Virus record (IMG/VR): IMGVR_UViG_3300044693_000272 | Reading direction: 5' to 3' (one strand) | Origin: a virus | Taxonomy: Duplodnaviria > Heunggongvirae > Uroviricota > Caudoviricetes | Length of the DNA: 64,000 nucleotides | Part shown: positions 3,660-54,136 of the stretch, piece after piece | Position numbering within the stretch: the first letter of the stretch is position 1 | Layout of the letters: every line of letters begins with the position of its first letter | Program-made: the position numbers and the translations under genes | The notes under the pieces: model-generated | Database searches by the model: none | What the model was told of the DNA's origin: nothing | The model's input: the letters and a program-made list of their open reading frames with translations, nothing else

Positions 3660-4559
3660 TTATGGCAAAATTGCATCAAGAATAGCAACACAAGCTTTGG
3701 CAGTGCGAAGGTCGCCAGAATCACGCTCTGGATTATATTCGACCAATTCGAAGCCAATCAACTTGCGTTTGTTCATACTTTCAAATGTCCTTACTACATC
3801 AGATAGCCACAACCCACCATCTTCTGGTGAACCAACTCCTGGTGCATCAATAGGATCCAGACTATCAATGTCAAATGTGATGCCATAACCAACAGTTTCT
3901 TTTGAAACTATTTCAATAGCTTCGTCTAAGCAAACATCGAAACCACGGTCATGCACTTCTTCAATTCGCATAACGCGAACGCCAAGGCTTTCTAGTAGAT
4001 CTTCTTCACCCTTTTCACTGCTCCGTGCTCCGATCACCACTACATTTTGAGGACGTAGCTTTCGAACAACATCGTGTATGGTGGTGAGATTGCGGCTGCC
4101 ATACCCTAGAAGGCAGGCTAGAGGCATACCATGAGGAGCACCGCTTTCAGATGTTTGTGGAGTATGACTGTCAAGATGAGCATCAATCCAGATTAGACCA
4201 ATATCACCCATTGTTCGATAGAAATTAGCTATTGCACTCCAAGTGCCAATTGCACAGGAATGATCACCGCCAATTACGAGAGGGAAACGTTCTTTTGAGA
4301 GTGTAGAATGTACGGCATTGGCAAGTCTTGGCATATATTCTTCGACCACCGCCAATTTACCGTGTTCCAGCAAAGAAGCATCACTGGTTATAAAAGATCC
4401 CCATTGAAGGGGAATAGGAAGCTTTGAAATATGTTCTCGGAGTGCAAGAGGCCCTGATTTGCACTCCATGATCTGGGCGCCTTCGCCGATTGCTGCTAAA
4501 GTAATTTCGATATGTTGCACGACAATCTCCAGAAAATAATTGGCAAATGGCACAGACAT
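3660..4559 (-). CDS. arginase/agmatinase/formiminoglutamase-family ureohydrolase
   Basis: Binuclear-Mn signature motifs of the arginase fold: VIGGDHSCAIG, IWIDAHLDSHTP, SGAPHGMPLA. Confidence 0.7.
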   Translation of the reverse strand: MSVPFANYFLEIVVQHIEITLAAIGEGAQIMECKSGPLALREHISKLPIPLQWGSFITSDASLLEHGKLAVVEEYMPRLANAVHSTLSKERFPLVIGGDHSCAIGTWSAIANFYRTMGDIGLIWIDAHLDSHTPQTSESGAPHGMPLACLLGYGSRNLTTIHDVVRKLRPQNVVVIGARSSEKGEEDLLESLGVRVMRIEEVHDRGFDVCLDEAIEIVSKETVGYGITFDIDSLDPIDAPGVGSPEDGGLWLSDVVRTFESMNKRKLIGFELVEYNPERDSGDLRTAKACVAILDAILP

Positions 4560-7813: not shown

Positions 7814-8446
7814 TTATTTGATTAATGGCAGTAATGCCGTGAATGCCTTCTTAATCTTGCCATCAGGAATTGCTAACGATGTAAGCGTATCAAAGCATTG
7901 CGAAATTTCTACTGAATCAACCATGTTATATTGTTTCAAGATTGAGTCTTTCAAAATTTGATGTCGTTCGGCAATTTTTGCCGCTTTGCTTACTTTTCGT
8001 GCTTCTTCATTCGCTCTTTTAGATTCAGCAGAATTAAGCTCTTGAATGATATTCTTTTCAAATATCTCCAAGAATGGTGGGAAATCACCTAAATTCTTTA
8101 CTGTGAATCGACGCTGGAGGTTCCAATGAGAAAAGAAACGATCATATTCTGTATAATGGTAGCCACCACGATAACCAGCTCGCGTTGATTTGACTTCAAT
8201 CATACCATTAGCAAATACATTCACGCGTAGGACAACATCAATCGTATCGTCTTCGTGTTTGAATGTATAACGGACATAGCAATCAACACCACGATGTGAT
8301 GGAGACAATCTAAATGAAGCAGAATCACGAATCTTCGCAATTTCAGTTACCACCCATTTCTGATCTTCAGACATGGGTTTACCGGTATTCTTTAATATTG
8401 CAGTAAGCAAGCTCTTTTCAGCTTTTGTCGATTTAGTTGTTATCAT
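7814..8446 (-). CDS. tandem paralog family A, member 1 (210 aa)
   Basis: N-terminus MITTKSTKAEKSLLTAIL and C-terminus ...AFTALLPLIK are shared with the next four genes. Confidence 0.5.
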   Translation of the reverse strand: MITTKSTKAEKSLLTAILKNTGKPMSEDQKWVVTEIAKIRDSASFRLSPSHRGVDCYVRYTFKHEDDTIDVVLRVNVFANGMIEVKSTRAGYRGGYHYTEYDRFFSHWNLQRRFTVKNLGDFPPFLEIFEKNIIQELNSAESKRANEEARKVSKAAKIAERHQILKDSILKQYNMVDSVEISQCFDTLTSLAIPDGKIKKAFTALLPLIK

Positions 8447-8447
8447 C

Positions 8448-9176
8448 TTATTTTGATTCATCCGCTTTGTACGGATCACCTTTCAGCAATTTGGCATATG
8501 TTTCGAATTGCTGTTTAACCACTCGCTTACCATGCCAACCGTATGATCGAAAGATCATATCATATGCCCAGTTCACGATTTCATTTTCAACGAAACCATG
8601 ACTTGCTAGGATGTCTTCTTTCATCTTTCGCAAGCGTTCTTTCTCTTTTTCTTCTCGGATTTTTATATCAACTATTCTTTTTTCAGCATCCTTGATTTCT
8701 CTTGCAACATTGGTGGTTAGTTCTTTAAACAGAGCATCCAAATCGATTTCGTCACGCTTTTCTGATTTGAACGTGTATGACACACTGGTATGTCCGGCGT
8801 AATAACATGAATCTGAGCCTTCGTAGAAATGTTGGCCGTCTTTGAAACCAGCTCGAATTGCTACTATGATTAATTGGCGAAAGTTCGGATTTCTACCAGG
8901 GCCCCAATACGGTTTATTTGATACTCTTACATTTAGAGTAACATTGATTGGAACTTTCTCTTTCTTTTTGCGATCGTAATATGACAGCTTTGTTGTGAAC
9001 GTCAATACTTCACAAATATTATTATTCCAAGGCATGTCCTGATCGGGATTGATGAACTTGAATTTACCAGTATGTTTTTCCGCCAATTGTTGAGCAACAT
9101 ATTTCAAGTCAGCGTCGATTGTGAAAGAAGAAGTAAGTACGGCAGTGAGCAAATCACCTTCAGTTTTTGATGCCAT
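8448..9176 (-). CDS. tandem paralog family A, member 2 (242 aa)
   Basis: MASKTEGDLLTAVL N-terminus; same architecture as neighbours. Confidence 0.5.
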   Translation of the reverse strand: MASKTEGDLLTAVLTSSFTIDADLKYVAQQLAEKHTGKFKFINPDQDMPWNNNICEVLTFTTKLSYYDRKKKEKVPINVTLNVRVSNKPYWGPGRNPNFRQLIIVAIRAGFKDGQHFYEGSDSCYYAGHTSVSYTFKSEKRDEIDLDALFKELTTNVAREIKDAEKRIVDIKIREEKEKERLRKMKEDILASHGFVENEIVNWAYDMIFRSYGWHGKRVVKQQFETYAKLLKGDPYKADESK

Positions 9177-9184
9177 GGTTATTA

Positions 9185-9817
9185 TTAGATTGAGGCTTTT
9201 AGCAAGGTCACAAGCTTCTTAAAGAGCTTTTCCTGCGCGGTTTTTTGTCGTTCGTATTTGGTGGCTATGTCAAATGCTAATTTAAAATCTTCATTATCTT
9301 TCAGATTATATGCCTTAATCCAAGTTTGTTTGCGTTGGATTTCTTCAGCTTCAATCTTGAGAATATAATCAATAAAACGTTTTGTTTTATCCTCAAATTC
9401 ATCAATCATTCCAATATAATTGACATTGGCTATTTCTGAGGCTTCAAGCAAATCATCTAGACAGCCGTAAACTGATCTACTATAACGTACTGGTCGATAT
9501 GATTGTTTACCAATCTTTAGTACATCAAGTATCATTTCAACTTTAGCTTCGTATTCGTCGTAATTGATGGCATGCAATGAACCATTCAATGTGTACTTGG
9601 CATCATTATAATTGAATTGATACTTGAATTTCACTTCTTCAAACCCAGAATTCTGATCGAATCCGTGGAGCGGCGTTTCGTCCCCTTCGGGGGCTATACT
9701 GAATATGAAATCACGATGCTTGATTAGTTCTTTTAGAACTGGGAAGAGATATTGATTGCCTTTTTCGGCACCTGATAGAATCAGTGCCAGCAATGCTGTT
9801 TCATGTTTCTTTGCCAT
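9185..9817 (-). CDS. tandem paralog family A, member 3 (210 aa)
   Basis: MAKKHETALLALIL ... KLVTLLKASI. Confidence 0.5.
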   Translation of the reverse strand: MAKKHETALLALILSGAEKGNQYLFPVLKELIKHRDFIFSIAPEGDETPLHGFDQNSGFEEVKFKYQFNYNDAKYTLNGSLHAINYDEYEAKVEMILDVLKIGKQSYRPVRYSRSVYGCLDDLLEASEIANVNYIGMIDEFEDKTKRFIDYILKIEAEEIQRKQTWIKAYNLKDNEDFKLAFDIATKYERQKTAQEKLFKKLVTLLKASI

Positions 9818-9885
9818 TTTGTATTTTTAAGTTGTCAGGCGTTGTGCGGCAAGTATAACATTTGCTAACACAAAGAAACAGACTT

Positions 9886-10569
9886 CTACTTCAGAAGTGG
9901 TAAGATCTTGCCAAATGCTTCACTGATTTTGTCAAAGGTACCAAGCTTACTAACTGCTTCGTACAAGGTTTCAATATTGGCTGGGGGCCTAGTGATGTGA
10001 ATATTGTACTTCTCGAAGACTTGTTGCTTCAAATTTATTGACTTCAGTGTACGAGCGTTTTTGCGTTGCTCGGTCTTGATTTTACGTGCTTTAGCATTGC
10101 TGCTGGCTACTGCGATCACGTCTTCTATATCATGTTCTTCAGCTAATCGAATTTTATTAAGCATCGTGCTAATAAGCCCTTGATATTCACCCAAAGATGT
10201 ACCAGGAATTATTGATTCCCAAACGTGCAGATGAAAATCGTAATGTGGCAAGCATTCACGGAATGCTTGCCCATCAACATAACCATATCTCTTGATGCTG
10301 AATATTAGACTACCAGAAAATCCTGCTACTTCTGCGGTGATGCGCACTTGTTTACCACTAGGGGTATCAAACGTGTAAGTGAAAGAGAGTTGTGAATCAC
10401 CTTCTTCGACAACCTTTGAAATCGATTTACCACTTCCTTTGATTTTGTGTAATTTGAACGACCCTTGAGGATTACGGGACGCCAACGCTTTACAGAACGC
10501 CTTCTCAAGGTCGTTTAGGTTATAGGAAAGGATTACTTTGACAAGTGAGGCTTCAGCTTTGCTGGCCAT
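9886..10569 (-). CDS. tandem paralog family A, member 4 (227 aa)
   Basis: ATG at 10569 (MASKAEASLVKVIL) after GGGGGT; C-terminus FGKILPLLK. Confidence 0.5.
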   Translation of the reverse strand: MASKAEASLVKVILSYNLNDLEKAFCKALASRNPQGSFKLHKIKGSGKSISKVVEEGDSQLSFTYTFDTPSGKQVRITAEVAGFSGSLIFSIKRYGYVDGQAFRECLPHYDFHLHVWESIIPGTSLGEYQGLISTMLNKIRLAEEHDIEDVIAVASSNAKARKIKTEQRKNARTLKSINLKQQVFEKYNIHITRPPANIETLYEAVSKLGTFDKISEAFGKILPLLK

Positions 10570-11275
10570 TTTTACCCCCAATCAATGGCAATAGCTCACC
10601 GAATGCTTTGCTGATTGCTTTTTCATTATTCAGCCTACTCAACACCTTGAACAGTAGTTCTGTTTCTGGTGTTGATGTGACATTGTGATTCTGAAACACC
10701 AATTGTTTCTTTCGATCTCGTGCAGAACTTCGTTGAACCCGTAAATTAGCACGTTGTTCTTCAGCTTCAGCCTTTTGCTGATCAAGCTTTTCCAAATAAG
10801 CTGGGATTTCATTCTCTGCTTTTTCAAACTTGGTGAAAACCGTTCTTATCGTGTCACCAAGTTTTATGGCATACACGTCATCAGAGCATCCTTCAGCACA
10901 CCAAAACGCGTCAGCACACCAAAATCTAGTGTGTCCTTGACTAATGTTGGTAATTGAAGGTTTGTTGCTTTTGTTGAAGCCACAAAAACTAATGCCCATA
11001 TGTGTGTTGATGTTTTTGGTGCTTTGTGGTGTCGCTACGACAACAACTTCAGCTTTATAGCTTTGACCGTCACGTTCAAATTTATATTTGAAACCGCACC
11101 TTGTACTCATCCTCGAGTTATACTTCCATTGACGGTCAGTGCTCGGATCGTATTCGTAAAACTCACCATCAGGATAACGCCGTGCCAATTCACCAGCCAG
11201 CATCTTCTCCAGACAATTGATGTCGATCGTAAGAGCCAATTTCAATAGGCTCTCTTCAGCTGCGGTAAGAATCAT
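10553..11275 (-). CDS. tandem paralog family A, member 5 (240 aa)
   Basis: MILTAAEESLLKLALT ... FGELLPLIGGK; its ATG overlaps the stop of the upstream gene (ATGA). Confidence 0.5.
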   Translation of the reverse strand: MILTAAEESLLKLALTIDINCLEKMLAGELARRYPDGEFYEYDPSTDRQWKYNSRMSTRCGFKYKFERDGQSYKAEVVVVATPQSTKNINTHMGISFCGFNKSNKPSITNISQGHTRFWCADAFWCAEGCSDDVYAIKLGDTIRTVFTKFEKAENEIPAYLEKLDQQKAEAEEQRANLRVQRSSARDRKKQLVFQNHNVTSTPETELLFKVLSRLNNEKAISKAFGELLPLIGGKNGQQS

Positions 11276-11943
11276 GCTGCAATGCCTTGAGCGTTTACGC
11301 TACGATAAATTCGTAGCTGAGTTGTAAGGTTGAATTTAATGTTTTCGTAAACTGGTTCTTGTTCAGGGAAATTGCGCCGTGCAGCTTTCAAGAACGGGAA
11401 GAAATGTTCTTCCGTTTCATCGCAGTAACTGATTTGCTTTTCCAGCTTGAACACACCAGCCATCGTTCGCATATTATGCACGCGATCGCTGCCTTTCACA
11501 ACAGACACACAGAAATTACCGGCCAGTGGTTCGAAGTATTCATCCGTGGTTTTCTTTTCACCTCGGTATTCTTTTGCAAGCAGACGACAATCAGCTTCGA
11601 TCACTGTGTCTGTTTTCTCACCGATTTCTTCGAAGCTGATTTGGTGACCATAGTCTTCACCGAGATCATGTAGCAGAGCGTCAGCGATTGTGCGTGGAGC
11701 GTCAATCAACAGTTTCTCCATGGTCAGGAGATACAGCGCGATTTCGATCTGATGTTGGAATTCAGGCGTTTTGCCGTCTTTGCGGAAACCTGTGTGGTAC
11801 AAGAGGCCTAGATCGAGTGCCTTGATTGCCACGTACCAAGCAGGATCACGAGAAGCTCGTCCCATCAACTGATAACGAAGAGCCATCTTCAACTTTTCGT
11901 AATGAAGGACTTCAGGTGTTACGAGCTTCTGGTGGGTTGCCAT
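11272..11943 (-). CDS. RelA/SpoT-family HD-domain (p)ppGpp hydrolase (small alarmone hydrolase, Mesh1-like)
   Basis: ALLHDLGEDYG matches the SpoT HD motif ALLHDVIEDT; VKGSDRVHNMRTM matches KLADRLHNMRTL; no synthetase domain. Confidence 0.65.
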   Translation of the reverse strand: MATHQKLVTPEVLHYEKLKMALRYQLMGRASRDPAWYVAIKALDLGLLYHTGFRKDGKTPEFQHQIEIALYLLTMEKLLIDAPRTIADALLHDLGEDYGHQISFEEIGEKTDTVIEADCRLLAKEYRGEKKTTDEYFEPLAGNFCVSVVKGSDRVHNMRTMAGVFKLEKQISYCDETEEHFFPFLKAARRNFPEQEPVYENIKFNLTTQLRIYRSVNAQGIAA

Positions 11944-20501: not shown

Positions 20502-20579
20502 TGGTCTCCAGTGCAAGATTCGAACTTGCGTCCCATGGTCCCAAACCACGTATACTAACCAGACTATACTAACCGGAGA
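20502..20579 (-). tRNA. tRNA-Pro (anticodon UGG)
   Basis: Hand-folded cloverleaf on the minus strand: acceptor tctccgg/ctggaga, anticodon stem cgtgg/ccatg, loop tTTGGga, T-arm gcaag-ttcgaat-cttgc, 3' CCA encoded. Confidence 0.6.
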
Positions 20580-20619
20580 ACGGGGGCCAGCTTTCGCCAG
20601 CTGAGCTAATTCCCCAAAA
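20580..20619 (-). pseudogene. tRNA-like 5' fragment (acceptor plus D-arm only)
   Basis: Minus strand reads ggggaattagctcagctggcgaaagctgg..., a canonical tRNA 5' half with no matching 3' half before the next tRNA begins. Confidence 0.25.
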
Positions 20620-20694
20620 TGGTGCGTCTGGAGAGGGTTGAACTCCCGACCTTGGCCTTGTAAGGGCCCTGCTCTTCCACTGAGCTACAGACGC
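20620..20694 (-). tRNA. tRNA-Val (anticodon UAC)
   Basis: Hand-folded: acceptor gcgtctg/cagacgc, D-stem gctc/gagc, anticodon loop cTTACaa, T-arm gggag-ttcaacc-ctctc, CCA encoded. Confidence 0.65.
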
Positions 20695-25985: not shown

Positions 25986-26014
25986 AAGGCTAACCCCTTT
26001 AAGGGGTTAGCCTT
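25986..26014 (-). terminator. rho-independent terminator after the H1-like protein gene
   Basis: aaggctaacccc-ttta-aggggttagcctt then TTTGTTTCATTG on the minus strand. Confidence 0.55.
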
Positions 26015-26034
26015 GATTATTGCGTAACATTAAC

Positions 26035-26865
26035 TTACGCTTGCGCTTCCTTCTTGTCTTGGCCCTTCTTGGAAGTCGACGCTTTCTTCACGGCAGCGGT
26101 TGTATTTTTTGCTTCGGCTGCCGCAGCGGGTGTCTGGCCTTCGACTTGTGCATCACCAGCCGGTGCATTCGTCGTTTCGCCTGTTGCTTGCTCGCCGTTG
26201 CTTTCAGCGCCGAAGTGCTGCATCAGTGCCTCTGCCGAGCTCGTGTCTTGTGCTTCACCAGCCGTCGCACTGGGTTGCTCTGTCGTTACACCACCCGTCG
26301 CCCCAGCGTTCGTTTCGGGTTGAGCGTTGGTTGGCTCAGTCGGCGCTTCGGGCTGTGCTTCAACTTGCTTCGACTTGCCCTTGCGTTCAGCTTTCGGCTT
26401 GTCAGCTTTTGCTGCCTTGGGTAATTTGTCGGGCTTGGGCAGTTTGTCGGCCTTGGCTTGCTTCGGTTCTTTTGCCGGTTCTTCAGCCTTTGCATCGGAC
26501 AGGGTCGCTGTCTTCATCAACGCGCTGTCCGCAACGATCAAAGTGGGGGTCGATTCGGCTGCATCGTCCGGAAGATCACGCAAGGTGAACCATCCGTAGC
26601 CGTCGTTGTGGAACAGGAATGATGTGCCGAGCTCGGGGCGAGGATACTTGAGGTCTTTGATGAAACTTGCGGGAATTTCAACCAGCGTTGCTCCGCTTTC
26701 AGCTTTTGCCGTGCGCGCTTGCATGTTTTTACCCGAAACGCGGTAGCTGGGGCGCAGGGCCAGGTATTCAACGCCCCCACGCTTCATCGTCTTGACACGA
26801 AGACGGGTGATACCATGGAGCAGCTCGACCGCCGCCCCGTTGAATTGCAGAACCAACGAAGACAT
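26035..26865 (-). CDS. protein with globular N-domain and long Ala/Lys/Pro/Glu-rich, histone H1-like low-complexity C-terminal tail
   Basis: AAAGGAGAA SD; tail PKPDKLPKAAKADKPKAERKGKS...; hairpin terminator 25986-26014 downstream. Confidence 0.55.
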   Translation of the reverse strand: MSSLVLQFNGAAVELLHGITRLRVKTMKRGGVEYLALRPSYRVSGKNMQARTAKAESGATLVEIPASFIKDLKYPRPELGTSFLFHNDGYGWFTLRDLPDDAAESTPTLIVADSALMKTATLSDAKAEEPAKEPKQAKADKLPKPDKLPKAAKADKPKAERKGKSKQVEAQPEAPTEPTNAQPETNAGATGGVTTEQPSATAGEAQDTSSAEALMQHFGAESNGEQATGETTNAPAGDAQVEGQTPAAAAEAKNTTAAVKKASTSKKGQDKKEAQA

Positions 26866-27022
26866 ATGAAATTCTCCTTTACTTCAAGTGAGTTTTTGAT
26901 CTAATCTTTCCACAAAACTGCTTGTGTAAATGAACTCTAACATCACCTGCTCACCTATACAAGCATTTTATGCTTATTCATCTTAAAAGAATACCACGTT
27001 TCATTTAAATCTGGTTTACGCC

Positions 27023-27700
27023 TTATTCTACAATGAACCGCATTTTTGCTTCATTAATCCCGAGAACCTCAATGCCTTCACGGGTCTTGGGAATATTGAA
27101 AATGCCAATTGCGGAGAAGGGGTTTGTATTATCAACTTCTTGCTCAGCATTTTCATCAAAAAGCCACCGCATAGCAAATCGATAATTATGTCCAACTATC
27201 CTGTAATTCATTACCGTAATAGACGGATCATAACCAGACCAAACCATTCTTGCAAACTGTTTGGGTTCAACTAGAGCCACTCTCGTGAATGCTTGTGGCG
27301 ATATTACCCCGCGATATCCGCAAGTGCCCAACACTTTTAGGCTTCCTTCCCAAGAGTATTGATCAGCACGTTCGCGATAAAACATGGTTCGCTTATGCAT
27401 ATCCCAAGCTTTCGGCAGTTTGTCCTGGCCGCGAGTTGCTTGCTCAATCGCGTCTTCATCAGCGACAAACTTATACTGATTCATCTTACTAGTGTCGATT
27501 TCTAGAACGACAAGCTGCTCATCAACTTTGCTTGCTTGAGCTGCAAAGTATAGAGCATACGCATCAGTCAGGTATACTGTTTGAGCATTGCTGGGGATAC
27601 TATGATCCCAGTTACTCATCTCGTTTTGATTGCGCGGCGTCAGACCATCAGCCAGAATTGAAGGTAGGTGCCGACTCGTGGTGCCATGAAAGAGCTTCAT
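27023..27700 (-). CDS. ADP-ribosyltransferase-fold protein with PARP-like catalytic signature
   Basis: MKLFHGTTSRHLPSILADGL parallels the PARP beta1-alpha motif LWHGSR..N...ILSQGL (H-Y-E class). Confidence 0.5.
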   Translation of the reverse strand: MKLFHGTTSRHLPSILADGLTPRNQNEMSNWDHSIPSNAQTVYLTDAYALYFAAQASKVDEQLVVLEIDTSKMNQYKFVADEDAIEQATRGQDKLPKAWDMHKRTMFYRERADQYSWEGSLKVLGTCGYRGVISPQAFTRVALVEPKQFARMVWSGYDPSITVMNYRIVGHNYRFAMRWLFDENAEQEVDNTNPFSAIGIFNIPKTREGIEVLGINEAKMRFIVE

Positions 27701-28035
27701 GCTGCTTGCCTCTTCTCGAATAGTTCAAGAGCCTTAACATCAAGCACGCAGAGATCGCCTTCTGGGAAATCCTGGTTCGCTCGGTTAAGCATCCTCGAGC
27801 AATCGTAGCAGTAATACGCATACGAACCACGGTTCCACCAAACTGCACCAGGTTCCTGGCAGGCGGTACGATTGCAACTTCCCGCCATCTTGCCCTTATC
27901 TGCCTTCAGCACGGGTTCTGTCTGACCACCGTATAGCGTTACCGCCACAGGCGAAGATTCGAAGGGATGGCCCATACGACGAGCACGTCGCTTCATCAAT
28001 ATTCGTTGTTCGATGCTCCCCGGGCGGGCCATCAC
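27697..28035 (-). CDS. Cys-rich zinc-finger protein (112 aa)
   Basis: ACAGGAGAA SD; CNRTAC ... CYDC. Confidence 0.5.
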   Translation of the reverse strand: MMARPGSIEQRILMKRRARRMGHPFESSPVAVTLYGGQTEPVLKADKGKMAGSCNRTACQEPGAVWWNRGSYAYYCYDCSRMLNRANQDFPEGDLCVLDVKALELFEKRQAA

Positions 28036-28103
28036 CTGATTCTCCTGTTCGTTTACCTATCGCAGATAGTATGTTCGCATGAATTTGATGTAAAGCGATG
28101 TTT

Positions 28104-28478
28104 TCACGCGCTTTGTGCCAAGATGATCGCGTACAATTTTGGGCTCACCATACGAAGCTGGTCAGCATCAACCTTCAAGCGGGCAAGAGCACTGACAATA
28201 TTGTTACTCTCCATATCACGAGCCGCCATCACCACAACCGTGTAGTCTTGTAGATCTTCACGATCAAGTTCATCAAGCAAATCGTAATATTGCGTTGACG
28301 TTAGCTTGTAACCTTGCTTCTGAATACGATACAGACACCAGAAATGGTGTCTGTTGATGTCACCGTTGATCTGTGGATCCGAAAGTTTACAAGACGAGCA
28401 GCAATAATAAGGATTATCACCTCCGATCGGTTCATTCGGATAATCGCTATCGTAAACCATATTTCCTCCACTGTTCAT
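28104..28478 (-). CDS. hypothetical protein with CCSSC motif (124 aa)
   Basis: GTGGAGGAAAT SD. Confidence 0.5.
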   Translation of the reverse strand: MNSGGNMVYDSDYPNEPIGGDNPYYCCSSCKLSDPQINGDINRHHFWCLYRIQKQGYKLTSTQYYDLLDELDREDLQDYTVVVMAARDMESNNIVSALARLKVDADQLRMVSPKLYAIILAQSA

Positions 28479-28599
28479 TTAATGCTGGCCCCCAACCAAT
28501 GCCTCTACATGGGATGATACTCAAATGCCCAAACGCACTTCTTACATGGATTCGCCAGTACTAACTGAACTGTTTGAGGGGCTGTCGCCCCTCACCCGC

Positions 28600-28971
28600 T
28601 TACTTCTTCGTCTTGTAGGTCTTGACTTTCTTGCGGCGCGCCGCGATACGAGGACGCTTGACCTTCACGTCGCGAACATCGAACGACAACTTGATCTTCG
28701 CAGCGTCTTCTTCGCTCGACAAGTACACTTTGTCGACGTAGATGATCTGGTTTTCGAATTCCTTCGGCCGACCCTTGACGCGCGTGGAATCCTTGTGCGT
28801 GTAGCACACCACCTTGTAGTAGCCCTTTGCATTTTCACGCAGCCACGTCAACACATCTTCCGGTGTGAGCTGGCTGTTGCCAAACCAGAAACGCACAGGA
28901 AATGCGTAGTAGTGGCTGATGTCACCGAAACGTTCGCTGTGGCGACCGAAATCTTTGATCGTTGTGGACAT
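28600..28971 (-). CDS. hypothetical protein with basic C-terminal tail (123 aa)
   Basis: GAGGAGGGAAAC SD; promoter motif 28993-29040. Confidence 0.5.
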   Translation of the reverse strand: MSTTIKDFGRHSERFGDISHYYAFPVRFWFGNSQLTPEDVLTWLRENAKGYYKVVCYTHKDSTRVKGRPKEFENQIIYVDKVYLSSEEDAAKIKLSFDVRDVKVKRPRIAARRKKVKTYKTKK

Positions 28972-28992
28972 CTCGTTTCCCTCCTCACGTTG

Positions 28993-29040
28993 TTTACCGT
29001 ACGTCAGATGATAAGTTCACCTGAATGTGGCGTCAATTGA
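28993..29040 (-). promoter_or_regulatory. conserved promoter/operator element: -35 TTGACG (29031-29036), -10 TATCAT (29008-29013)
   Basis: Consensus copy. Confidence 0.5.
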
Positions 29041-29043
29041 ATT

Positions 29044-29592
29044 TCATTCCACAAGCTTCAGATACTTTGCATCTACGGCATCAACCAGCCACACATCATT
29101 TGCTGACTTGTAGAAATCAACTTTATCAGCCAGCATAGCTTTAGAGTCAACTTCAATTACTACAGTTTTTCGAAACCGTTTCCGAGCCAGTTCAATGTCA
29201 GCAGTGAGATGAACGTGAGTACGTGTCATCTTATTGAGACCTTTCTTCTTGATGATCTCCCAAGCTTCGCTTGAAGTGCCGTGATACAAGATCACTGGCG
29301 GCACTGCTTTTTGCAACCCAGGATCAACATTAATGGAATGTCCTTGGTTTGCCCGAATTTTGGTGAAGTCTTCATTGAATGAATAACGGCCCTTCTGATC
29401 GTTAGCAACAATTCCTTTCAGGATTTCAAGATCAAATTCATAACCTGCTTTCTTGCCCGCCGCTATCACATCGTCTACTAGGATGAATGCTTGTTTGTCA
29501 ATTTTGACTTTTTGTTCTTTCGCACCATGTCGCAGCAAGTACGACAACCAAATACTATGCTTTTTGTACTTTTTATTGAAGTCTTCATTCAT
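29044..29592 (-). CDS. kptA: RNA 2'-phosphotransferase Tpt1/KptA
   Basis: Start at internal ATG (MNEDF), TAATG-coupled; motifs LSYLLRH, IRANQGHS, LYHGTSS, THVHL match the Tpt1 Arg-His-Arg-Arg and HGT signatures. Confidence 0.8.
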   Translation of the reverse strand: MNEDFNKKYKKHSIWLSYLLRHGAKEQKVKIDKQAFILVDDVIAAGKKAGYEFDLEILKGIVANDQKGRYSFNEDFTKIRANQGHSINVDPGLQKAVPPVILYHGTSSEAWEIIKKKGLNKMTRTHVHLTADIELARKRFRKTVVIEVDSKAMLADKVDFYKSANDVWLVDAVDAKYLKLVE

Positions 29593-29825
29593 TATTTTGG
29601 TATCCCATCTGTATATCCGAACACACCATAGCCACGCACACTCACCAAGTAAGTATCCCAACCAATGCGTTCATCTTTTCCTTGATGAAGGAATGCAATG
29701 TCGTCATGGCAAAAATGTGTCCCCATGCGTTCGTTAATTTCCGTCAACAAGTCTTCCTTCGTTTCGAAATTGAAGACCGTAGCCAGTGATTCGGCCAATC
29801 CACCACGATGTTCACGTGCTCGCAT
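29592..29825 (-). CDS. hypothetical protein (77 aa)
   Basis: GAGGGATATC SD; stop overlaps the Tpt1 start. Confidence 0.45.
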   Translation of the reverse strand: MRAREHRGGLAESLATVFNFETKEDLLTEINERMGTHFCHDDIAFLHQGKDERIGWDTYLVSVRGYGVFGYTDGIPK

Positions 29826-29829
29826 ATTC

Positions 29830-30990
29830 AGATATCCCTCTTGTTCGTTTTCATTGCGCGCTCAACTTCACGCTTGCCCTCACGTTCTTTTTCCGCTGTT
29901 CGCTTGTCATGTTGTTTCTTTCCCTTCGCCTCGCTGGAGCGTTATGCGCTCGTCGTCTTCGTTTCGCCGAACGCGATCGAACGTGCGCTCGGCGCAGTCC
30001 CCGGTTTCGCTTGGCCAGACTCCGTGCCGATCGGCGTGGTCGGGCCGGGCAGCGTGGCCGAACTGGCGCGGCAATGCCGTGCCGCGCCGAGGCATCAGGT
30101 CATCGCGCCCGCGGGGGCCGACGTGGGGAATGCGGCGCATCCTTTGCCGTTGCGTCGACTGGCTGCGCTTCATGAGCGGGCTTCAACGCGGGCTGATGGA
30201 CTGGCATCTCGCTCGCTTCTGGCAAAGCGATTTCGTCATCGACCCGGTGCCGGGAAACCGGAGTAGCCGTCCAGCGAGCAAGCCGATCAGGAAGTATTCC
30301 GCCGCGCGGCGCCGAGAGCGCCAGCGGATCGTATTGCTCCGTCCACCACAGGCCATCGATGTCGGGACAATGACGCTCGACGAAAATCATCAGGGCCATA
30401 TCCGTGCTCTCGGTCTGATTCAAACCGACTCGACCGACGGCCGATTCGAGGGCGGGCGTGCCAACCCATTGGCAGATCGGTTCGATGTACGGTTTCCCGT
30501 CGGGCCCAGGCGCATCGTCGGGCGAATCGAATTCGCCGGTATCGATCTCGCTCCATGCGGCTTCGCGCGAGTCGGCGACGAAGTAGTGCCATTCATCGCT
30601 ATCGGTGTCGAGATACCAGGCGCGGTATTGTTGCTCCGGTCGGAGCAGACCTTCGGACTGCGCCCACGAGCGTAATGCGGCTGTCCGGGTTTCGTCGGCC
30701 AGCAGTGCCAGGACGTCGACGAAGTTCGCATCGTGGTTCGTCAGCTCAAACCACGGCCGACCGCCGATGGTGGCGATCTCCTCCCATGCGTGGGGTGTCG
30801 TGGAGACCGACAGCGCATGTCCTTCGAGGCTTTGCCCGGTACTGTCGCGCGCGGCGGGGTTCATCTCGCCGATGTGAGTGACGCGTTCAATCGCGACGAC
30901 GGGGAGGTATGTAGGGCCGTGAGGCGCGATCGCCGGGCCGTCATCGCGCAGCGCGGGAGGACGCTGCTCAACAAAATGGAATTGTGCGTC
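29830..30990. other. compositional island at about 65% GC, against roughly 45% for the rest of the window
   Basis: By eye the segment is dominated by GC-rich runs (gcgcgccgaggcatcaggtcatcgcgcccgcgggggccgacgtgggg) and produces long open frames on both strands, which is typical of high-GC DNA. Confidence 0.6.
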
Positions 30991-31197
30991 GAGCTCCAGA
31001 AGGCGTGCCGCATAAGCACGACCACGATTGTTGACGACAGGCTCAAGCTTGCCAGTGATTTCGTTAATGTTGGCAACAGGAACATCGCCAAAAGTCTTGA
31101 TAAACGAGAAACGACGGCGAGACTTGGCGCCAGTAAGCGCACGAATGTGAACCTGTTTTTCGATGATGGGAACAGCAATATCCTTCCAAATAACCAT
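30100..31197 (-). CDS. chimeric hypothetical protein: phage-like N-terminus fused to a GC-rich (about 65% GC) body
   Basis: Start trimmed to MVIWKD (AGGAGATAAAAATG) after promoter motif 31214-31262; from about codon 70 the composition switches to high GC. Confidence 0.4.
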   Translation of the reverse strand: MVIWKDIAVPIIEKQVHIRALTGAKSRRRFSFIKTFGDVPVANINEITGKLEPVVNNRGRAYAARLLELDAQFHFVEQRPPALRDDGPAIAPHGPTYLPVVAIERVTHIGEMNPAARDSTGQSLEGHALSVSTTPHAWEEIATIGGRPWFELTNHDANFVDVLALLADETRTAALRSWAQSEGLLRPEQQYRAWYLDTDSDEWHYFVADSREAAWSEIDTGEFDSPDDAPGPDGKPYIEPICQWVGTPALESAVGRVGLNQTESTDMALMIFVERHCPDIDGLWWTEQYDPLALSAPRGGILPDRLARWTATPVSRHRVDDEIALPEASEMPVHQPALKPAHEAQPVDATAKDAPHSPRRPPRAR

Positions 31198-31213
31198 TTT
31201 TATCTCCTGTTCT

Positions 31214-31262
31214 TTACCATGTTCAAATGATACATTCACCTGAACATGGTGTCAACTGTTTT
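31214..31262 (-). promoter_or_regulatory. conserved promoter/operator element: -35 TTGACA (31250-31255), -10 TATCAT (31227-31232)
   Basis: Consensus copy preceding the chimeric GC-rich gene. Confidence 0.55.
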
Positions 31263-31464
31263 ATGGTGTTGCCGGATCCAAGTCACATGCTGCAACTTCG
31301 ATCACATCGATAAAAGGCACTCTACCAATGCGAACTTGGTAATAATCAACACCGTTCTTACGCATGCATTTCATCTTGATAGTACCCGTCCGACCAAGCA
31401 TCAAACCATAGTCTTTCTTCGTGTCTCGAGCAATTTTTACAACAGCATTGTCTGTGAATTGCAT
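31261..31464 (-). CDS. hypothetical protein (67 aa)
   Basis: ACAGGAGAATAG SD. Confidence 0.5.
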   Translation of the reverse strand: MQFTDNAVVKIARDTKKDYGLMLGRTGTIKMKCMRKNGVDYYQVRIGRVPFIDVIEVAACDLDPATP

Positions 31465-46831: not shown

Positions 46832-47941
46832 TCATTCACTTGGAGTGACTATCAAACTTTTCTGATTGAACTTTGAATCAACCCAAGAATTGATTCGTTT
46901 ACGTATTGGTGTCTCTACTCGCATATTGAGAATATGTGCTGAGACAATTGATAATGTAATATACAACACAGCAGCAATTACACGTTCAATAGTACCTGTT
47001 GTTATGGCAATAAACGTCGCAAAAGCCATAACTATGGCGGCATGGCTCAAATATAATGAATAAGAAATTCTACCCAAATATTGAGCAAAGCGACTATTGA
47101 GTAAAAGTGTCACTGGTCCGTTATTCATAGTTAGTGTCGCTATGAATAATGCAAACAATAATGGCGCAACACATGCTAAGCCTGGAATGCTATCAGCGAT
47201 TAGAATAAAGAGTAATGTACCGGTAAATATCGCTAATTGTATATTTGGTTTACAAAGACTGATCACAAATCGATGATTGCGATATTCGGCAAGCAGAGCA
47301 CCAATGAAGAAGCCAACTAGACCGCGTCCCCATCCAAAGTAATAGGTTTGTTCAAAACATCCGCCCTTAGTCAAACATGAACTAACAATTATCGACTGCC
47401 ATAAAGCAATCGAATAACCAAAAAGAGCAAATGCGATAAACGCAGCCGTTCTAATTTTTCCATGTAGGGAAATACAGAGTAGTGCGAATATACAGTAGAT
47501 CCAAAATTCAACACTGGCACTCCAACTTACTGCAATACCAATTACATTCGTGATAGCCAAACCTTGAAGAAACGTCGCAACACCTAATAGTTGAATAATG
47601 CTTGGTAATCGATATTCATGAAAGCTTGCGAGATATTGTAAGAAAAAATAAATGAAATTCGCAATCATGAATGCTGGCCACAATCTCCCAATTCGACGCA
47701 ATATAAAAGCACCAAAATCAGAATTATTTCTCAGCTTCGCTTTATATGAATCATATATTACGAAACCACTCAATACGAAGAACAAATCAACAGCCAAATA
47801 ACCGTTCTTTGAAAAAGAAAAGAAACTTGCGGCAGCACGAGAATTCGGTACAGCTTGCAATGACATATAAACATGAAGGAAGACAACAATTAAAGCGGCA
47901 AACCCGCGCAAGCCTTCAAGGCTATGAAGTCGGCCGCCCAT
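46832..47941 (-). CDS. acyltransferase family 3 integral membrane protein (OafA/YrhL-like)
   Basis: LEGLRGFAALIVVFLHV ... FFVLSGFVI plus about 10 TM helices; GAGGAGATGACAT ATG. Confidence 0.65.
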   Translation of the reverse strand: MGGRLHSLEGLRGFAALIVVFLHVYMSLQAVPNSRAAASFFSFSKNGYLAVDLFFVLSGFVIYDSYKAKLRNNSDFGAFILRRIGRLWPAFMIANFIYFFLQYLASFHEYRLPSIIQLLGVATFLQGLAITNVIGIAVSWSASVEFWIYCIFALLCISLHGKIRTAAFIAFALFGYSIALWQSIIVSSCLTKGGCFEQTYYFGWGRGLVGFFIGALLAEYRNHRFVISLCKPNIQLAIFTGTLLFILIADSIPGLACVAPLLFALFIATLTMNNGPVTLLLNSRFAQYLGRISYSLYLSHAAIVMAFATFIAITTGTIERVIAAVLYITLSIVSAHILNMRVETPIRKRINSWVDSKFNQKSLIVTPSE

Positions 47942-51362: not shown

Positions 51363-51641
51363 CTATGCGACCAAATGAACCGTAAGATAATCTATAAAGC
51401 TTTTGAAATACACTTGATATGGTCTTCTATCATTAGATCGCTCACAGATCACATCGCCGCGCAATCCTCGATATAAAAGGTGAAAAGCATGGTTATCGAA
51501 CCTAAAACCTTCGCTGAAAGTCAAACGAACAATGACTTCAGGTTTGAAACCATGCTCTAGTTCAAAGTCATGAATCTTCTGTTGACGACCCAGAAAGGCA
51601 AGTGTGGGATCGAGATATTCTTCAAGAGTCCAAGCAATCAT
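51363..51641 (-). CDS. divergent C-terminal-motif family member (92 aa)
   Basis: Ends FIDYLTVHLVA. Confidence 0.4.
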   Translation of the reverse strand: MIAWTLEEYLDPTLAFLGRQQKIHDFELEHGFKPEVIVRLTFSEGFRFDNHAFHLLYRGLRGDVICERSNDRRPYQVYFKSFIDYLTVHLVA

Positions 51642-52150
51642 ACATTCGCCCGATCTGCTAACGCCTGAAGAACAAATGGGTGAATGTATTTTGCCACTTT
51701 TTCTTCCCAGTTGTTAATTCCGACAAACCCTCGCACAGCTGATGAGCTGATACGCGTGATATCTTCGGGAGGAATTACAAAGACATGGTCGATGCTATTT
51801 TCAATATCTGCGTTGAAACCCTGAATATCTTTCTCGTAACCAAAGTCAACAGCATTGCGAATGCCACGCATGATGGTGGTAACACCTAGATGCTTCGCCA
51901 CGCTGACCGTGAATTCATTTTCAATCACTACAAACTTCAACTTTTCGAACAGCTCAGATGTGAGTGAGTCAGCCAACACTCGCCGTGCCAGTTCCTCACG
52001 TTCGATCGAATTGAACATTCCCTTCTTTGCTGGATTGTAAGCAATCGCAAAGTAGACTTCATCGAATGTGCGACAAGCACGCTCGACCATCCATTCATGC
52101 CCTCGTGTGATTGGATCGAACGACCCAGTAACCATACCGATCGTATACAT
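51638..52150 (-). CDS. CoaD-like nucleotidyltransferase (phosphopantetheine adenylyltransferase family)
   Basis: GSFDPITRGHEWMV matches the (H/T)xGH motif GTFDPITNGH; RGIRNAVDFGYE matches RGLRAVADFEYE; start chosen at the ATG that TAATG-overlaps the upstream stop. Confidence 0.6.
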   Translation of the reverse strand: MYTIGMVTGSFDPITRGHEWMVERACRTFDEVYFAIAYNPAKKGMFNSIEREELARRVLADSLTSELFEKLKFVVIENEFTVSVAKHLGVTTIMRGIRNAVDFGYEKDIQGFNADIENSIDHVFVIPPEDITRISSSAVRGFVGINNWEEKVAKYIHPFVLQALADRANV

Positions 52151-53385
52151 TAGACCCAACGCTCCCATTTCTTGATAAGTGTGTCCAAGTTTGCACGTGC
52201 ATTATCTTCGAGATGTGCAAAGTGCGATGATTGAAAAACTTTTGGTCGACGCAAAAATGTCTTCAATACAGAAACCCGGCCTCTAGCAAATGTTCGAATT
52301 TCATACTCATTTTTGAACTCCTGATATACTGCGTCATCAAATGCTTCAGCCTCCTCGGGAGTTCCACCCAACATCATCAAGTCCACATCAAGAAACAATT
52401 CACAATCGTTTTTCAACTTAGGATTGGCTTTCAAGAAATGCGAAGAAGCCGAATGCGTTTTCGTACTCATGATGTATTCAGCAGCAACTGCGAGTGATGG
52501 GATACCATCTTCAATTTCAAATCGCAATGCTTCTGGCATAATTGCTTTGAATTGATCAATCATGAACTTAACGCTTTGAGATTCATTATGTGGATACAGA
52601 GTCTTATACGTACTGTATACCACATCATGATAGATAATCGCAATACCGGCAATGCTAGGATAGTTGAATTTGTCAAGATTCGACATAAACCATCGATACA
52701 TAGCAAGTGGGTGATCTGCATTATGCCAGTGCCGATCAAAACCGTGATATTGTTTCATCGCATTGTCGAACAATTCACCAGCTTCCTTTTCTTTTTTGTA
52801 AAAAGCGCTTTGGAAGAATAAACGTAGATCTTTTCGAGCAATGTTACCAGCAATGCGTTTAGCTTCAGTTTCAAGCTCTTCAAGCGAAACATTAGTGTCA
52901 ATTGTTTCATCCGACATTGCCGACTTCACAATAGTACTGAGTTGCGCACCACGAATCTTTGCGATTTTTTCGGCAGTGAAGCCATCACGTGCAATCACAC
53001 GTTTTTCTTGCGTCTCATCGTCGCACATACACGTGATGATGAAATCGTATTTGTCATTATTGCACATTTCAAACAACAGAGGAAATTCAACTACGATGTG
53101 ATTCTGACTGTCGATTTTTATCATTCGCAACCGCATGTGCGTTTTCACCAAATCTTCAAGCCATTTACGTTGCTCTGGGTCGTTGAATACGATATCCGAT
53201 ATTTGCTTGCGATCATCCGTTCCGAATTGTTCCTTCAGTTCTTTAGCAAATTCGGTGTTCTTATAAAGCTCGTGAACCATCTCATCGATGCTTGCTTGAG
53301 TGTAATTTGGTGTAAGATGTTTCACCAATAGTTTCGTGAATGTGGATTTTCCACAGCCAATGTTACCGGTAATCGCGATCCGCAT
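52150..53385 (-). CDS. two-domain protein: N-terminal CoaE-like P-loop kinase and C-terminal HD-domain phosphohydrolase
   Basis: MRIAITGNIGCGKSTF is a Walker A as in dephospho-CoA kinase (LTGGIGSGKST); C-terminal RHWHNADH ... IIYHDVVYS ... DVDLMMLG carries the HD-domain His/Asp pattern. Confidence 0.55.
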   Translation of the reverse strand: MRIAITGNIGCGKSTFTKLLVKHLTPNYTQASIDEMVHELYKNTEFAKELKEQFGTDDRKQISDIVFNDPEQRKWLEDLVKTHMRLRMIKIDSQNHIVVEFPLLFEMCNNDKYDFIITCMCDDETQEKRVIARDGFTAEKIAKIRGAQLSTIVKSAMSDETIDTNVSLEELETEAKRIAGNIARKDLRLFFQSAFYKKEKEAGELFDNAMKQYHGFDRHWHNADHPLAMYRWFMSNLDKFNYPSIAGIAIIYHDVVYSTYKTLYPHNESQSVKFMIDQFKAIMPEALRFEIEDGIPSLAVAAEYIMSTKTHSASSHFLKANPKLKNDCELFLDVDLMMLGGTPEEAEAFDDAVYQEFKNEYEIRTFARGRVSVLKTFLRRPKVFQSSHFAHLEDNARANLDTLIKKWERWV

Positions 53386-53515: not shown

Positions 53516-54085
53516 TTAGTACGGAAAGTCAGCTTTCTTGATTTTCACAAGGCGACCATCTTCGTGATGCCAAACAATGCCTTCGATAGGCTTGTCTCGC
53601 AACCATTCTTTGATGCCATCAAACGTGCGCGGGCAATCTTCTAAGATATCCTTACCGTGAGGAACAAGAATGTGTTCGGTCAAACCTTCAGGATTAGCAC
53701 CGTGACGTGTCCCAATTTTGGGACCACACGCTTCATATGTGCCATCAGGGATTCCACCGGCAAACTTGTTCTTCTGCGCCCATTCGACAGCTTCTCGAAT
53801 GTACTTCGATTCCGGGCCTTCAGCGGGAACCCAACCAGGCCAGTGCCCGCTTTTCGGATCAGGGTTAGGTTGGGCAGGAATGAAGTCAACGGGAGGTGTT
53901 CTCCCAGTCTTAGCGTCGTAACGCTTAAAGACTTGACCATCCTTTACCAACACAGCCACGCCATCCCATTTACGAGTAGCGTAACCTTCACCCTGAACAA
54001 CCCATTCAGCACCCGGAGTAACTTCGTCACGAACCTTACGATCCCCTTCGTAGTTACGTTGAAACAACGACATGATTTTCTTCAT
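53516..54085 (-). CDS. minimal covalent nucleotidyltransferase (ATP-dependent RNA/DNA ligase-like)
   Basis: Start trimmed to MKKIMSLFQ (AAGGAGCAGTTC ATG); ATRKWDGVAVLVKDG is motif I (KxDG), EGIVWHHEDGRLVKIKK resembles motifs IV/V. Confidence 0.55.
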   Translation of the reverse strand: MKKIMSLFQRNYEGDRKVRDEVTPGAEWVVQGEGYATRKWDGVAVLVKDGQVFKRYDAKTGRTPPVDFIPAQPNPDPKSGHWPGWVPAEGPESKYIREAVEWAQKNKFAGGIPDGTYEACGPKIGTRHGANPEGLTEHILVPHGKDILEDCPRTFDGIKEWLRDKPIEGIVWHHEDGRLVKIKKADFPY

Positions 54086-54136
54086 GAACTGCTCCTTAAA
54101 AGTGATGAGATAGTTTTCGAGTCCCATCAACGCCAC

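Follow-up and report, generated by a model that had tools for sequence, protein, structure and literature searches.

Two genes for proteins of the NAD-binding ADP-ribosyltransferase (ART) fold lie 1.3 kb apart in a virus of the Caudoviricetes (IMG/VR record IMGVR_UViG_3300044693_000272). A central theme of phage-host conflict is now the ADP-ribosylation of defence proteins and of nucleic acids, both DNA and RNA, represented by DarT, CmdT, AcrIF11, T4 Alt/Mod, and Tpt1. The questions at this locus are whether the two proteins work together or are merely neighbors, and what each of them does. The analysis covered 64,000 nucleotides of this virus, referred to here as the window.

Layout of the locus

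Both enzyme genes are found where a preliminary description of the sequence had placed them, and they and all other annotated features of the region are on the minus strand. One encodes an RNA 2'-phosphotransferase of the Tpt1/KptA family. The other encodes a protein named here ART225, whose N-terminus reads MKLFHGTTSRHLPSILADGL. The region contains the following features.

26035-26865, minus strand: backbone gene downstream of ART225, 276 aa
27023-27700, minus strand: ART225, stand-alone ART-fold protein of a phage family, 225 aa
27697-28035, minus strand: Zn112, C4 zinc-ribbon protein by its Cys pattern, 112 aa
28066-28094, minus strand: promoter-like TTTACA-17-TACTAT from a consensus scan, upstream of the Zn112-ART225 pair
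28104-28478, minus strand: CxxC...HxxxC protein, backbone gene found in relatives by tblastn, 124 aa
28600-28971, minus strand: backbone gene between Tpt1 and the Cys-rich genes, not Cys-rich, 123 aa
29008-29036, minus strand: promoter-like TTGACG-17-TATCAT from a consensus scan, immediately past the Tpt1 stop codon
29044-29592, minus strand: Tpt1/KptA RNA 2'-phosphotransferase with two lobes, 182 aa (PF01885, phrog_5470, PDB 7kw8)
29592-29825, minus strand: phrog_8785 gene immediately upstream of Tpt1, 77 aa

The start codon of Tpt1 overlaps the stop codon of the upstream 77-aa gene (TAATG), and the stop codon of Zn112 overlaps the start of ART225 (ATGA). The promoter-like site at 29008-29036 would part the Tpt1 unit from the downstream genes. 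Both promoter-like sites are only suggestive because the number found by the consensus scan is not above the shuffled expectation. The enzymes had been described as separated by two Cys-rich zinc proteins, whose Cys patterns are indeed conserved, but the third intervening gene (28600-28971) had been missed.

The source phage, of about 524 kb, appears to carry both enzyme genes at a variable place within a series of small genes that is otherwise conserved. Neither megablast of positions 26000-31300 nor tblastn of ART225 returned a match among GenBank phages, and by these sequence comparisons the phage is without a close cultured relative. The genes around the two enzymes recur in relatives that share the backbone. 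The 77-aa protein matches phrog_8785 (E 6.2e-22) and is 78-81% identical in L001 and L004, both of which are without Tpt1. The 123-aa and 124-aa genes are kept at 73-96% and 71-74% identity (the latter by tblastn), respectively, in L001, L004, L012, and L013, and neither product has a Pfam or PHROG match. The 124-aa gene is present regardless of Tpt1 or ART225, and its C-x2-C...H-x3-C pattern is retained in relatives. In the 276-aa protein, also encoded in L001, L004, L012, and L013, about 120 N-terminal residues form a conserved domain, which is followed by an Ala/Lys/Pro/Glu-rich tail.

The Tpt1/KptA enzyme

The earlier assignment of 29044-29592 as an unambiguous Tpt1/KptA holds. The protein matches Pfam PF01885 (E 4.6e-43; 147.7 bits, cut-off 26), with residues 11-171 covering profile positions 5-176 of 177, as well as phrog_5470 (E 6.4e-51) and PDB 7kw8 (E 2e-40 across residues 11-179). 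Its length, counted from an internal ATG, agrees with the homologues P0169-P0171, and it carries the motifs LLRHG, KIRANQGHS, LYHGTS, and THVHLT. [quoted passage not shown] R21, H22, and R124 are invariant among 40 Tpt1 homologues, and R80 is at least 90% conserved. The score against the NCBIfam equivalog NF002014 is 178.3 bits, below the cut-off of 239. Judged from its sequence, the protein belongs to the family but has diverged too far to be named under NCBI's strict equivalog rule.

The enzyme is canonical and probably active, and it would strip 2'-phosphates from RNA using NAD+. Tpt1 family members may also ADP-ribosylate 5'-phosphate ends. The most likely role of the phage enzyme is repair of phage RNA (tRNA), as previously proposed for the KptA of jumbo phages (PMC9503650; PMC7824862). 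The RNA-repair context inside the window is thin. Rfam detects two tRNA genes and nothing else, an RLIG1-like ORF (53516-54136) lies 24 kb off and matches over just 61 residues, and no 2H, kinase-phosphatase, or Macro gene is found among window ORFs of at least 90 aa (E<=1e-4). Jumbo-phage KptA is already documented, with a role in RNA repair assigned to it, so nothing new comes from the Tpt1 gene.

Fold and relatives of ART225

ART225 also has the ART fold that had been proposed for both proteins. Its AF2 model is of high confidence, and all 50 PDB matches listed by Foldseek are ARTs, each with a TM-score <0.5. The model shows the split six-stranded fold of the superfamily with the NAD-site His on strand 1 (core strands 2-8, 41-45, 63-69, 78-80, 126-130, and 138-144). 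A 45-aa insert (81-124), opened by D81-E82-D83, occupies the ARTT-loop position, and a C-terminal extension spans residues 146-225.

The preliminary description had called ART225 PARP-like, a label that the comparisons do not bear out. ART225 is without a PARP Pfam match, and its closest relatives are the NAD lobe of Tpt1 and DarT, to which its core is homologous. The ART225 family aligns with Tpt1 by hhalign (96.9%), with H5 corresponding to H104, T7 to T106, and Y43 to H128. This alignment joins residues 1-73 to Tpt1 residues 99-153 only. The Tpt1 residues aligned with His5, Thr7, and Ile15 are a His, a Thr, and an Ile that contact NAD, and the HGT motif, earlier read as a donor-site signature, is a genuine NAD-site motif. 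The profile also matches DarT1 at E 2e-4 across strands 1-3. On every measure, matches to PARP-type proteins rank behind those to Tpt1 and DarT. The H-Y-E ARTs of the PARP/diphtheria-toxin type (PF00644) share the strand-1 His (H5) and strand-2 Tyr (Y43), but ART225 has no PF00644 match at E<=0.1, and the three of 97 family members that do match are weak (E 0.0024 or worse).

ART225 nonetheless differs from each known system. Unlike Tpt1 (PF01885; PDB 7kw8, 6e3a, 9ld3), it has no N-terminal winged-helix RNA lobe, and its sequence opens directly with strand 1 (MKLFHGT) of the NAD lobe. It therefore lacks three of the four tetrad residues. Where the H-H-h pattern of Tpt1 has its second His ('VHL', H128), ART225 has Y43, which is invariant in 97 members. 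The loop ahead of strand 2 is longer by 17 residues, strands 4 and 5 are separated by the 45-residue insert, and the 80-residue C-terminal extension follows the core. ART225 scores 14 bits against PF01885, below the cut-off of 26. Against the DarT ssDNA ADP-ribosyltransferases (PF14487; PDB 8baq, 7omv), the score is 15.4 bits, below the Pfam cut-off of 22.5, and the PADLOC DarT model gives E 0.028, short of its threshold. In the comparison with DarT, no strand-5 Glu is evident in ART225. DarT is a toxin-antitoxin component of host defence, whereas ART225 is phage-encoded, and the six Pfam-annotated ART225 contexts contain no Macro or NADAR partner of the DarG type and no ARH.

The best structural matches in BFVD are jumbo-phage ARTs, namely Bacillus phage G gp53 with its paralogues and a protein of Vibrio phage nt-1, at identities <30% and TM-scores <0.5. 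Residues 14-158 of gp53 match the ART225 profile (44.7 bits; E 6e-16 in a single-sequence search) and include LMHGTS, VYLTD, an acidic triad DDD, and CAHYG on strand 5. The 377-aa gp53, whose C-terminal half is unrelated, is a distant member of the family. These jumbo-phage ARTs add no mechanism, since none has a known function.

An origin of ART225 by local duplication of Tpt1 was considered and rejected. Identity between the pair is just 30% over 71 residues (E 0.039). Archaeal or bacterial Tpt1s are at least as close to ART225, and the ART225 family is widespread without Tpt1.

Conserved residues and predicted activity of ART225

An alignment of 97 diverse family members, spanning 34-58% identity, shows that Y43, Y48, D81, E82, D83, and G125 are invariant and that H5, G6, T7, R23, E67, Q87, R109, and R140 are at least 90% conserved. 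An H-Y-E triad had been the expectation for ART225. His5 and Tyr43 are conserved, but the strand-5 Glu is apparently Cys127. Strand 5 (126-130) reads G125-T-C127-x-Y, and position 127 is Cys in 81%, Val in 10%, and Ala in 5% of the 97 members. C127 pairs with Tpt1 V167 by a low-confidence alignment, made with the insert deleted beforehand, and by topology. The strand-5 and strand-6 equivalences are inferred only, because hhalign does not carry across the 45-residue insert and deleting it gave a low-confidence extension. On this mapping, Cys or Val appears to stand where the canonical Glu of strand 5 would be. The conserved acids, E67 and D81-E82-D83, lie away from strand 5. A protein that has lost this Glu could be an NADase, could follow another chemistry, or could be catalytically inactive.

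In the reading favored here, ART225 would bind NAD+ through a pocket that keeps His5, Thr7, Ile15, Tyr43, and Tyr48 and, without the Tpt1 RNA lobe and probably without the strand-5 Glu, would act alone in transferring ADP-ribose to a target of host or phage origin. By fold topology, the invariant Asp-Glu-Asp at the end of strand 4 would sit beside the usual catalytic site, accompanied by the conserved arginines R23, R90, R104, R109, and R140. As a rough division, the target may be a nucleic acid or a phosphorylated substrate, with a protein a slightly less likely choice and water or a small molecule less likely again. Charge gives no hint to the target, because the family pI is neutral (median 7.1, versus 8.95 for Tpt1).

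A further-reaching but doubtful interpretation is that ART225 founds an unclassified, virus-specific clade of hundreds to thousands of clusters between Tpt1 (H-H-h) and DarT/PARP (H-Y-E). The catalytic acid would have moved from strand 5 to the Asp-Glu-Asp at the end of strand 4, and the RNA lobe of Tpt1 would have given way to an Arg-rich insert. If true, the acceptor of ADP-ribose would consequently be of a new kind, for instance a base, a signalling nucleotide, or a nucleic-acid end that bears a phosphate, and the enzyme would serve phages as a widespread weapon that needs no partner.

It is rather unlikely that ART225 is instead an NAD+ glycohydrolase or phosphorylase, or an enzyme of soluble ADP-ribose derivatives, that for example depletes host NAD+ or destroys or creates a signal. 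Members of the H-H-h (KptA) clade, to which ART225 has sequence affinity, act chiefly in RNA repair and on small molecules and soluble derivatives of ADPr (PMC9503650). The absence of the strand-5 Glu, on its low-confidence mapping, and the stand-alone nature of ART225, which has no conserved partner, are also consistent with this activity. A catalytically dead pseudo-ART that serves as a sponge or decoy, only binding NAD, ADP-ribose, or some factor of the host, has little chance of being correct. The near-invariance of H5, G6, T7, Y43, Y48, and the Asp-Glu-Asp across the 97 members is typical of an active site, and Tpt1 is an active enzyme although its strand 5 carries no such acid (PMC6333775).

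Linkage of ART225, Tpt1, and Zn112

The preliminary description had united ART225, Tpt1, and the intervening zinc proteins in one candidate module, for modifying the ends of nucleic acids or for counter-defence by NAD consumption. The setting invites such a proposal. Both enzymes have the ART fold and lie close together on one strand, both have nucleic-acid-acting relatives (Tpt1, DarT), and in a close relative a NAMPT gene lies 3 kb upstream of Tpt1 and hints at a link to NAD. However, the synteny of relatives on the same backbone largely refutes a two-enzyme module, as genomes with both genes, with ART225 only, and with Tpt1 only are all present. L001-L003 and L004/L005 keep ART225 and the backbone genes without Tpt1, whereas L012/L013 keep Tpt1 (86-90% identity) and the backbone without ART225 and Zn112. 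Tpt1 is found within 10 kb of an ART225 homologue in none of 80 IMG/VR loci. The promoter-like sites, if real, would also part the units, and jumbo phages commonly encode several ARTs that are unrelated to one another (phage G has at least 10). ART225 and Tpt1 therefore come and go independently and are no working pair, and the module is very unlikely. Opportunistic interplay within this single phage is conceivable because the genes are only 1.3 kb apart.

No other gene recurs beside ART225. In an all-against-all comparison of 2373 neighboring ORFs, the commonest cluster occurs in just 9 of the 80 loci. This bears on Zn112, for which the least probable of the proposals would apply, a toxin-antitoxin-like or regulator-enzyme pair in which the zinc ribbon inhibits or targets the ART. 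The pattern C54-x4-C59...C76-x2-C79 of Zn112 has all four Cys invariant in five homologues; its AF2 model is of low confidence (pLDDT 49.8). A pair would fit the ATGA overlap, the recurrence of Zn112 beside an ART225 homologue in L004 and L094, and the unrelated small ORFs that overlap the start of several other ART225 homologues by four bases. Yet the pairing is absent from L001 and L095, the Zn112 homologue of L095 is not beside an ART, and four-base overlaps are common throughout these phage loci. A conserved small partner of ART225 is rejected because the upstream small ORFs of six homologues are unrelated in sequence. The Zn112-ART225 pairing is thus lineage-restricted and not obligate.

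The two enzymes are probably independently acquired accessory genes, a canonical Tpt1 and a stand-alone, NAD-using ART225 without a dedicated partner. The locus also serves as a caution that adjacency in hypervariable accessory regions of huge phages is a poor guide to functional modules.

Distribution and significance of the ART225 family

That jumbo phages encode KptA and more than one ART is already on record, and the value of the locus lies in the orphan ART225 family alone. The family comprises 2153 clusters at 50% identity (E<=1e-3), and at least 800 at E<=1e-30, and IMG/VR contains 114 relatives. The family is almost absent from cells: a scan of 185,579 species genomes with one search pattern, which possibly under-counts cellular homologues, gave two loci, each of them on a MAG contig. 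No Pfam or NCBIfam model describes the family, and its sole PHROG, phrog_13493, is without an assigned function and is matched by 66 of the 97 aligned members. The family is therefore large and virus-restricted and, as judged from Pfam, NCBIfam, and PHROG, unnamed. Among viral ARTs, N4-like, p0068-like, and ORF28 families have been named (PMC9503650). A tblastn search of 50,697 phage records with the family consensus gave five matches, to PVA23, two uncultured huge phages, and two Bacillus phage G records, none of them an N4-like phage or enterophage.

The predicted NAD pocket of ART225 is clear, yet its set of invariant residues is unusual. Finding the target of so common a family would add a new arm to the picture of phage-host ADP-ribosylation, for which gp53 of Bacillus phage G offers a cultured handle.

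Gene order and source phage

All genes of the region are on the minus strand.

Genes of the region in the direction of transcription (coordinates, strand, description)
30100-31239, -, 379-aa ORF, GC-rich
29592-29825, -, 77-aa gene, phrog_8785
29044-29592, -, Tpt1
28600-28971, -, 123-aa gene
28104-28478, -, 124-aa gene, CxxC...HxxxC
27697-28035, -, 112-aa gene, C4 zinc ribbon
27023-27700, -, ART225, 225 aa, ADP-ribosyltransferase (ART) fold
26035-26865, -, 276-aa gene

The stop of the 77-aa gene overlaps the Tpt1 start (TAATG), and the stop of the zinc-ribbon gene overlaps the ART225 start (ATGA). Promoter-like sites, one after Tpt1 and one before the zinc-ribbon gene, are no more frequent than in shuffled sequence. 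Every motif string quoted in the preliminary description was found in the sequence. A 523,572-bp contig on record encodes a protein identical to ART225 and 523.8-kb contigs carry close relatives, so the phage is about 524 kb long. No near relative was found among GenBank phages.

The 379-aa ORF (30100-31239, -) has a GC content of 59.8%, against 44% for the window. Its first ~58 residues alone match a short gene of the related locus L004 (83% identity), and it is otherwise without a family match apart from a weak one to DUF6630. It appears to be a fusion or an insertion of foreign DNA. The corresponding stretch in the relatives L001 and L004 holds a gene for SmpB (PF01668; L001 2404-2856, L004 3653-4108), a few genes upstream of the ART225 locus. 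SmpB is the partner of tmRNA in trans-translation. Neither SmpB, among window ORFs of at least 90 aa, nor a tmRNA (ARAGORN) was found in the window. The 276-aa gene (26035-26865, -; 57% GC) encodes a conserved N-terminal domain of ~120 aa and then a long low-complexity tail, rich in Ala, Lys, Pro, and Glu, resembling histone H1 or AlgP. This gene is kept in all relatives and is cut to 184 aa in L012.

Fold and nearest relatives of ART225

ART225 has only sub-threshold matches to Pfam (DarT, E 0.016; Tpt1, E 0.052) and to PHROG (phrog_13493, which has no assigned function). Its AlphaFold2 model, built from 20 homologues, is confident (pLDDT 88.4, pTM 0.87). The 50 PDB matches listed by Foldseek are all ARTs, with TM <0.5; no solved structure is close overall. 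When profiles of 97 family members and of 40 Tpt1 sequences were compared, the probability was 96.9% (E 1.3e-10), with H5 and T7 falling on the His and Thr of the Tpt1 HGT motif and Y43 on the second His of "VHL". The family profile also aligns with DarT1 (E 2e-4) over strands 1-3 and through the long loop that precedes strand 2. [quoted passage not shown] The proposal that both proteins have the ART fold stands, whereas the "PARP-like" label for ART225 does not. Unlike Tpt1, ART225 begins at strand 1 and so lacks the entire RNA lobe and three of the four residues of the Tpt1 Arg-His-Arg-Arg tetrad.

Active site of ART225

Conservation was assessed in 97 members, which share 34-58% identity with the window protein. 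Y43, Y48, D81, E82, D83, and G125 are invariant, and H5, G6, T7, R23, N30, W31, E67, Q87, T105, R109, S120, R140, D158, I161, N165, and Y173 are at least 90% conserved. In CthTpt1, ADP-ribose is contacted by a His, a Thr, and an Ile to which H5, T7, and I15 correspond, so ART225 retains the NAD pocket. The catalytic position is Glu in H-Y-E enzymes, Val in Tpt1, and apparently C127 in ART225 (81% Cys and 10% Val in the family), although direct alignment support for this placement is weak. A complete H-Y-E triad is not supported.

The invariant Asp81-Glu82-Asp83 (DED) directly follows strand 4. Strands 4 and 5 of the ART sheet are adjacent and joined as a hairpin (Tpt1 order beta7-beta8-beta5-beta4-beta6-beta9). 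From this topology, DED should lie beside the canonical catalytic position. DED also opens a 45-residue insert at the position of the ARTT loop, in which Q87, R90, R104, and R109 are conserved.

Distribution of the ART225 family

When 1.84 billion cluster representatives were searched in full with the family profile, 2153 clusters matched at E<=1e-3, of which 800 reached E<=1e-30. Nearly all of the best 150 proteins listed are stand-alone and 200-260 aa long. None of the 97 members reaches membership of a Pfam family; the best matches, all weak, are to Tpt1 (4/97), PARP (3/97), and DarT (1/97). Phrog_13493, whose function is unassigned, is matched by 66. At least 114 relatives occur in IMG/VR, on contigs of 8 kb to 608 kb, and the structural neighbours in BFVD are likewise unannotated jumbo-phage proteins. 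One search pattern matched only two MAG contigs among 185,579 species genomes. The new element is the orphan ART family, which lies within a known superfamily and may already have a name in the Aravind classification.

Among 50,697 GenBank phage records, a family-consensus query matched only five: Vibrio phage PVA23, two uncultured huge phages, and two records of Bacillus phage G (gp53). The family profile matches gp53 over residues 14-158, in which LMHGTS, VYLTD, an acidic triad (DDD), and the CAHYG of strand 5 are retained. Gp53 (AEO93324.1; L098 2962-4095) is the one entry point to the family found in a cultured phage. Its N-terminal 145 residues form a distant family member, and its C-terminal ~220 residues are unrelated and carry no annotation.

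Tpt1 and its possible partners

The gene at 29044-29592 encodes a full-length Tpt1/KptA of 182 aa, as first proposed (PF01885, E 4.6e-43; phrog_5470, 6.4e-51), and its best solved relative, 7kw8, aligns end to end (2e-40). GenBank has 98 phage records that encode Tpt1, most of them from Erwinia, Klebsiella, Dickeya, and Serratia jumbo phages and large Clostridioides phages. Jumbo-phage KptA has been described and assigned to the repair of cleaved tRNA (PMC9503650, PMC7824862). The Tpt1 part of the preliminary description is right and was known before.

The only candidate repair partners in the window are an RLIG1-like ORF and two tRNA genes. In the 206-aa ORF (53516-54136, -), residues 141-201 (61 residues) partially match Pfam RLIG1 (RNA ligase 1; E 1.4e-10), making it a possible RNA-ligase partner of Tpt1, 24 kb apart. 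The adjacent tRNA-Pro(TGG) and tRNA-Val(TAC) genes (20502-20694, -) were both confirmed by ARAGORN and Rfam. L012 and L013, the relatives whose Tpt1 is closest (86-90% identity), encode a NAMPT-type nicotinamide phosphoribosyltransferase 3 kb upstream of Tpt1 (L012 3380-4903, L013 3277-4803), which hints at phage NAD+ salvage in that lineage. No NAMPT was found in the 64-kb window.

Tpt1 and ART225 in related loci

The preliminary description joined the two enzymes, with zinc-finger proteins between them, into one NAD-using module. A tblastn presence/absence matrix of window genes against related loci places the backbone genes (123 aa, 124 aa, 276 aa, 90/94 aa, and 161 aa) in all relatives. 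ART225 occurs without Tpt1 in L001-L003 and L004/L005 (523.8-kb contig); in L004, a 78-aa gene is directly followed by a 122-aa gene. Conversely, L012/L013 carry Tpt1 (86-90% identity) and lack both ART225 and the zinc-ribbon gene; in L012, the homologues of the 124-aa and 276-aa genes are ~250 bp apart.

A Tpt1 profile was run on 80 IMG/VR loci that encode an ART225 homologue, with flanks of up to 10 kb per side. It detected no Tpt1 gene and matched only the ART225 homologues themselves, weakly (17-20 bits). Separate occurrence in relatives and this absence from all 80 loci leave the two-enzyme module unsupported. When the 2373 neighbouring ORFs were clustered, no partner family was present in more than nine of the 80 loci, and Macro, NADAR, and ARH genes were absent from all six Pfam-annotated contexts. 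Pairing of the zinc-ribbon gene with ART225 is confined to the window's own lineage (L004, L094), and L095 has the zinc-ribbon gene without an ART. Over 40% of jumbo phages have ARTs, and phage G has at least 10 (PMC9503650); two ART-fold genes in one accessory region are therefore unremarkable.

Proposed activities

Tpt1 most likely acts in NAD+-dependent RNA-end clean-up, given its family membership, its intact tetrad, and the role assigned in the literature. ART225 has the ART fold and conserved NAD-site residues. It most likely binds NAD+ and transfers ADP-ribose without a partner, transfer being suggested by the invariant residues and DED. Its acceptor could be a nucleic acid or phosphorylated molecule, to which the evidence tilts slightly because its kin Tpt1 and DarT act on nucleic acids and arginines are conserved. 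Modification of a host protein and plain NAD+ hydrolysis are both serious alternatives.

Other genes of the window

At 51638-53385 (-), a cytidylyltransferase-like gene (176 aa, possibly PPAT-like) overlaps a gene for a protein of 411 aa that starts with a dephospho-CoA kinase domain, which suggests phage-encoded late steps of CoA synthesis. An arginase-family gene (3660-4559, -; E 2e-56), AdoMet decarboxylase, GNAT acetyltransferases, an S24 peptidase, a sigma-70 region-4 protein, a radical-SAM protein (59507-60271), and an acyltransferase-3 (46832-47941) were also detected. This rich auxiliary metabolic set is possibly polyamine-related. Six head-to-tail ORFs of 210-242 aa occupy 7814-11943 (-), and at least three of them are weakly paralogous (26-28% identity, E 1e-9 and 2e-4). 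The array may consist of diverging paralogues; its last ORF (11272-11943) encodes an HD_4 domain.
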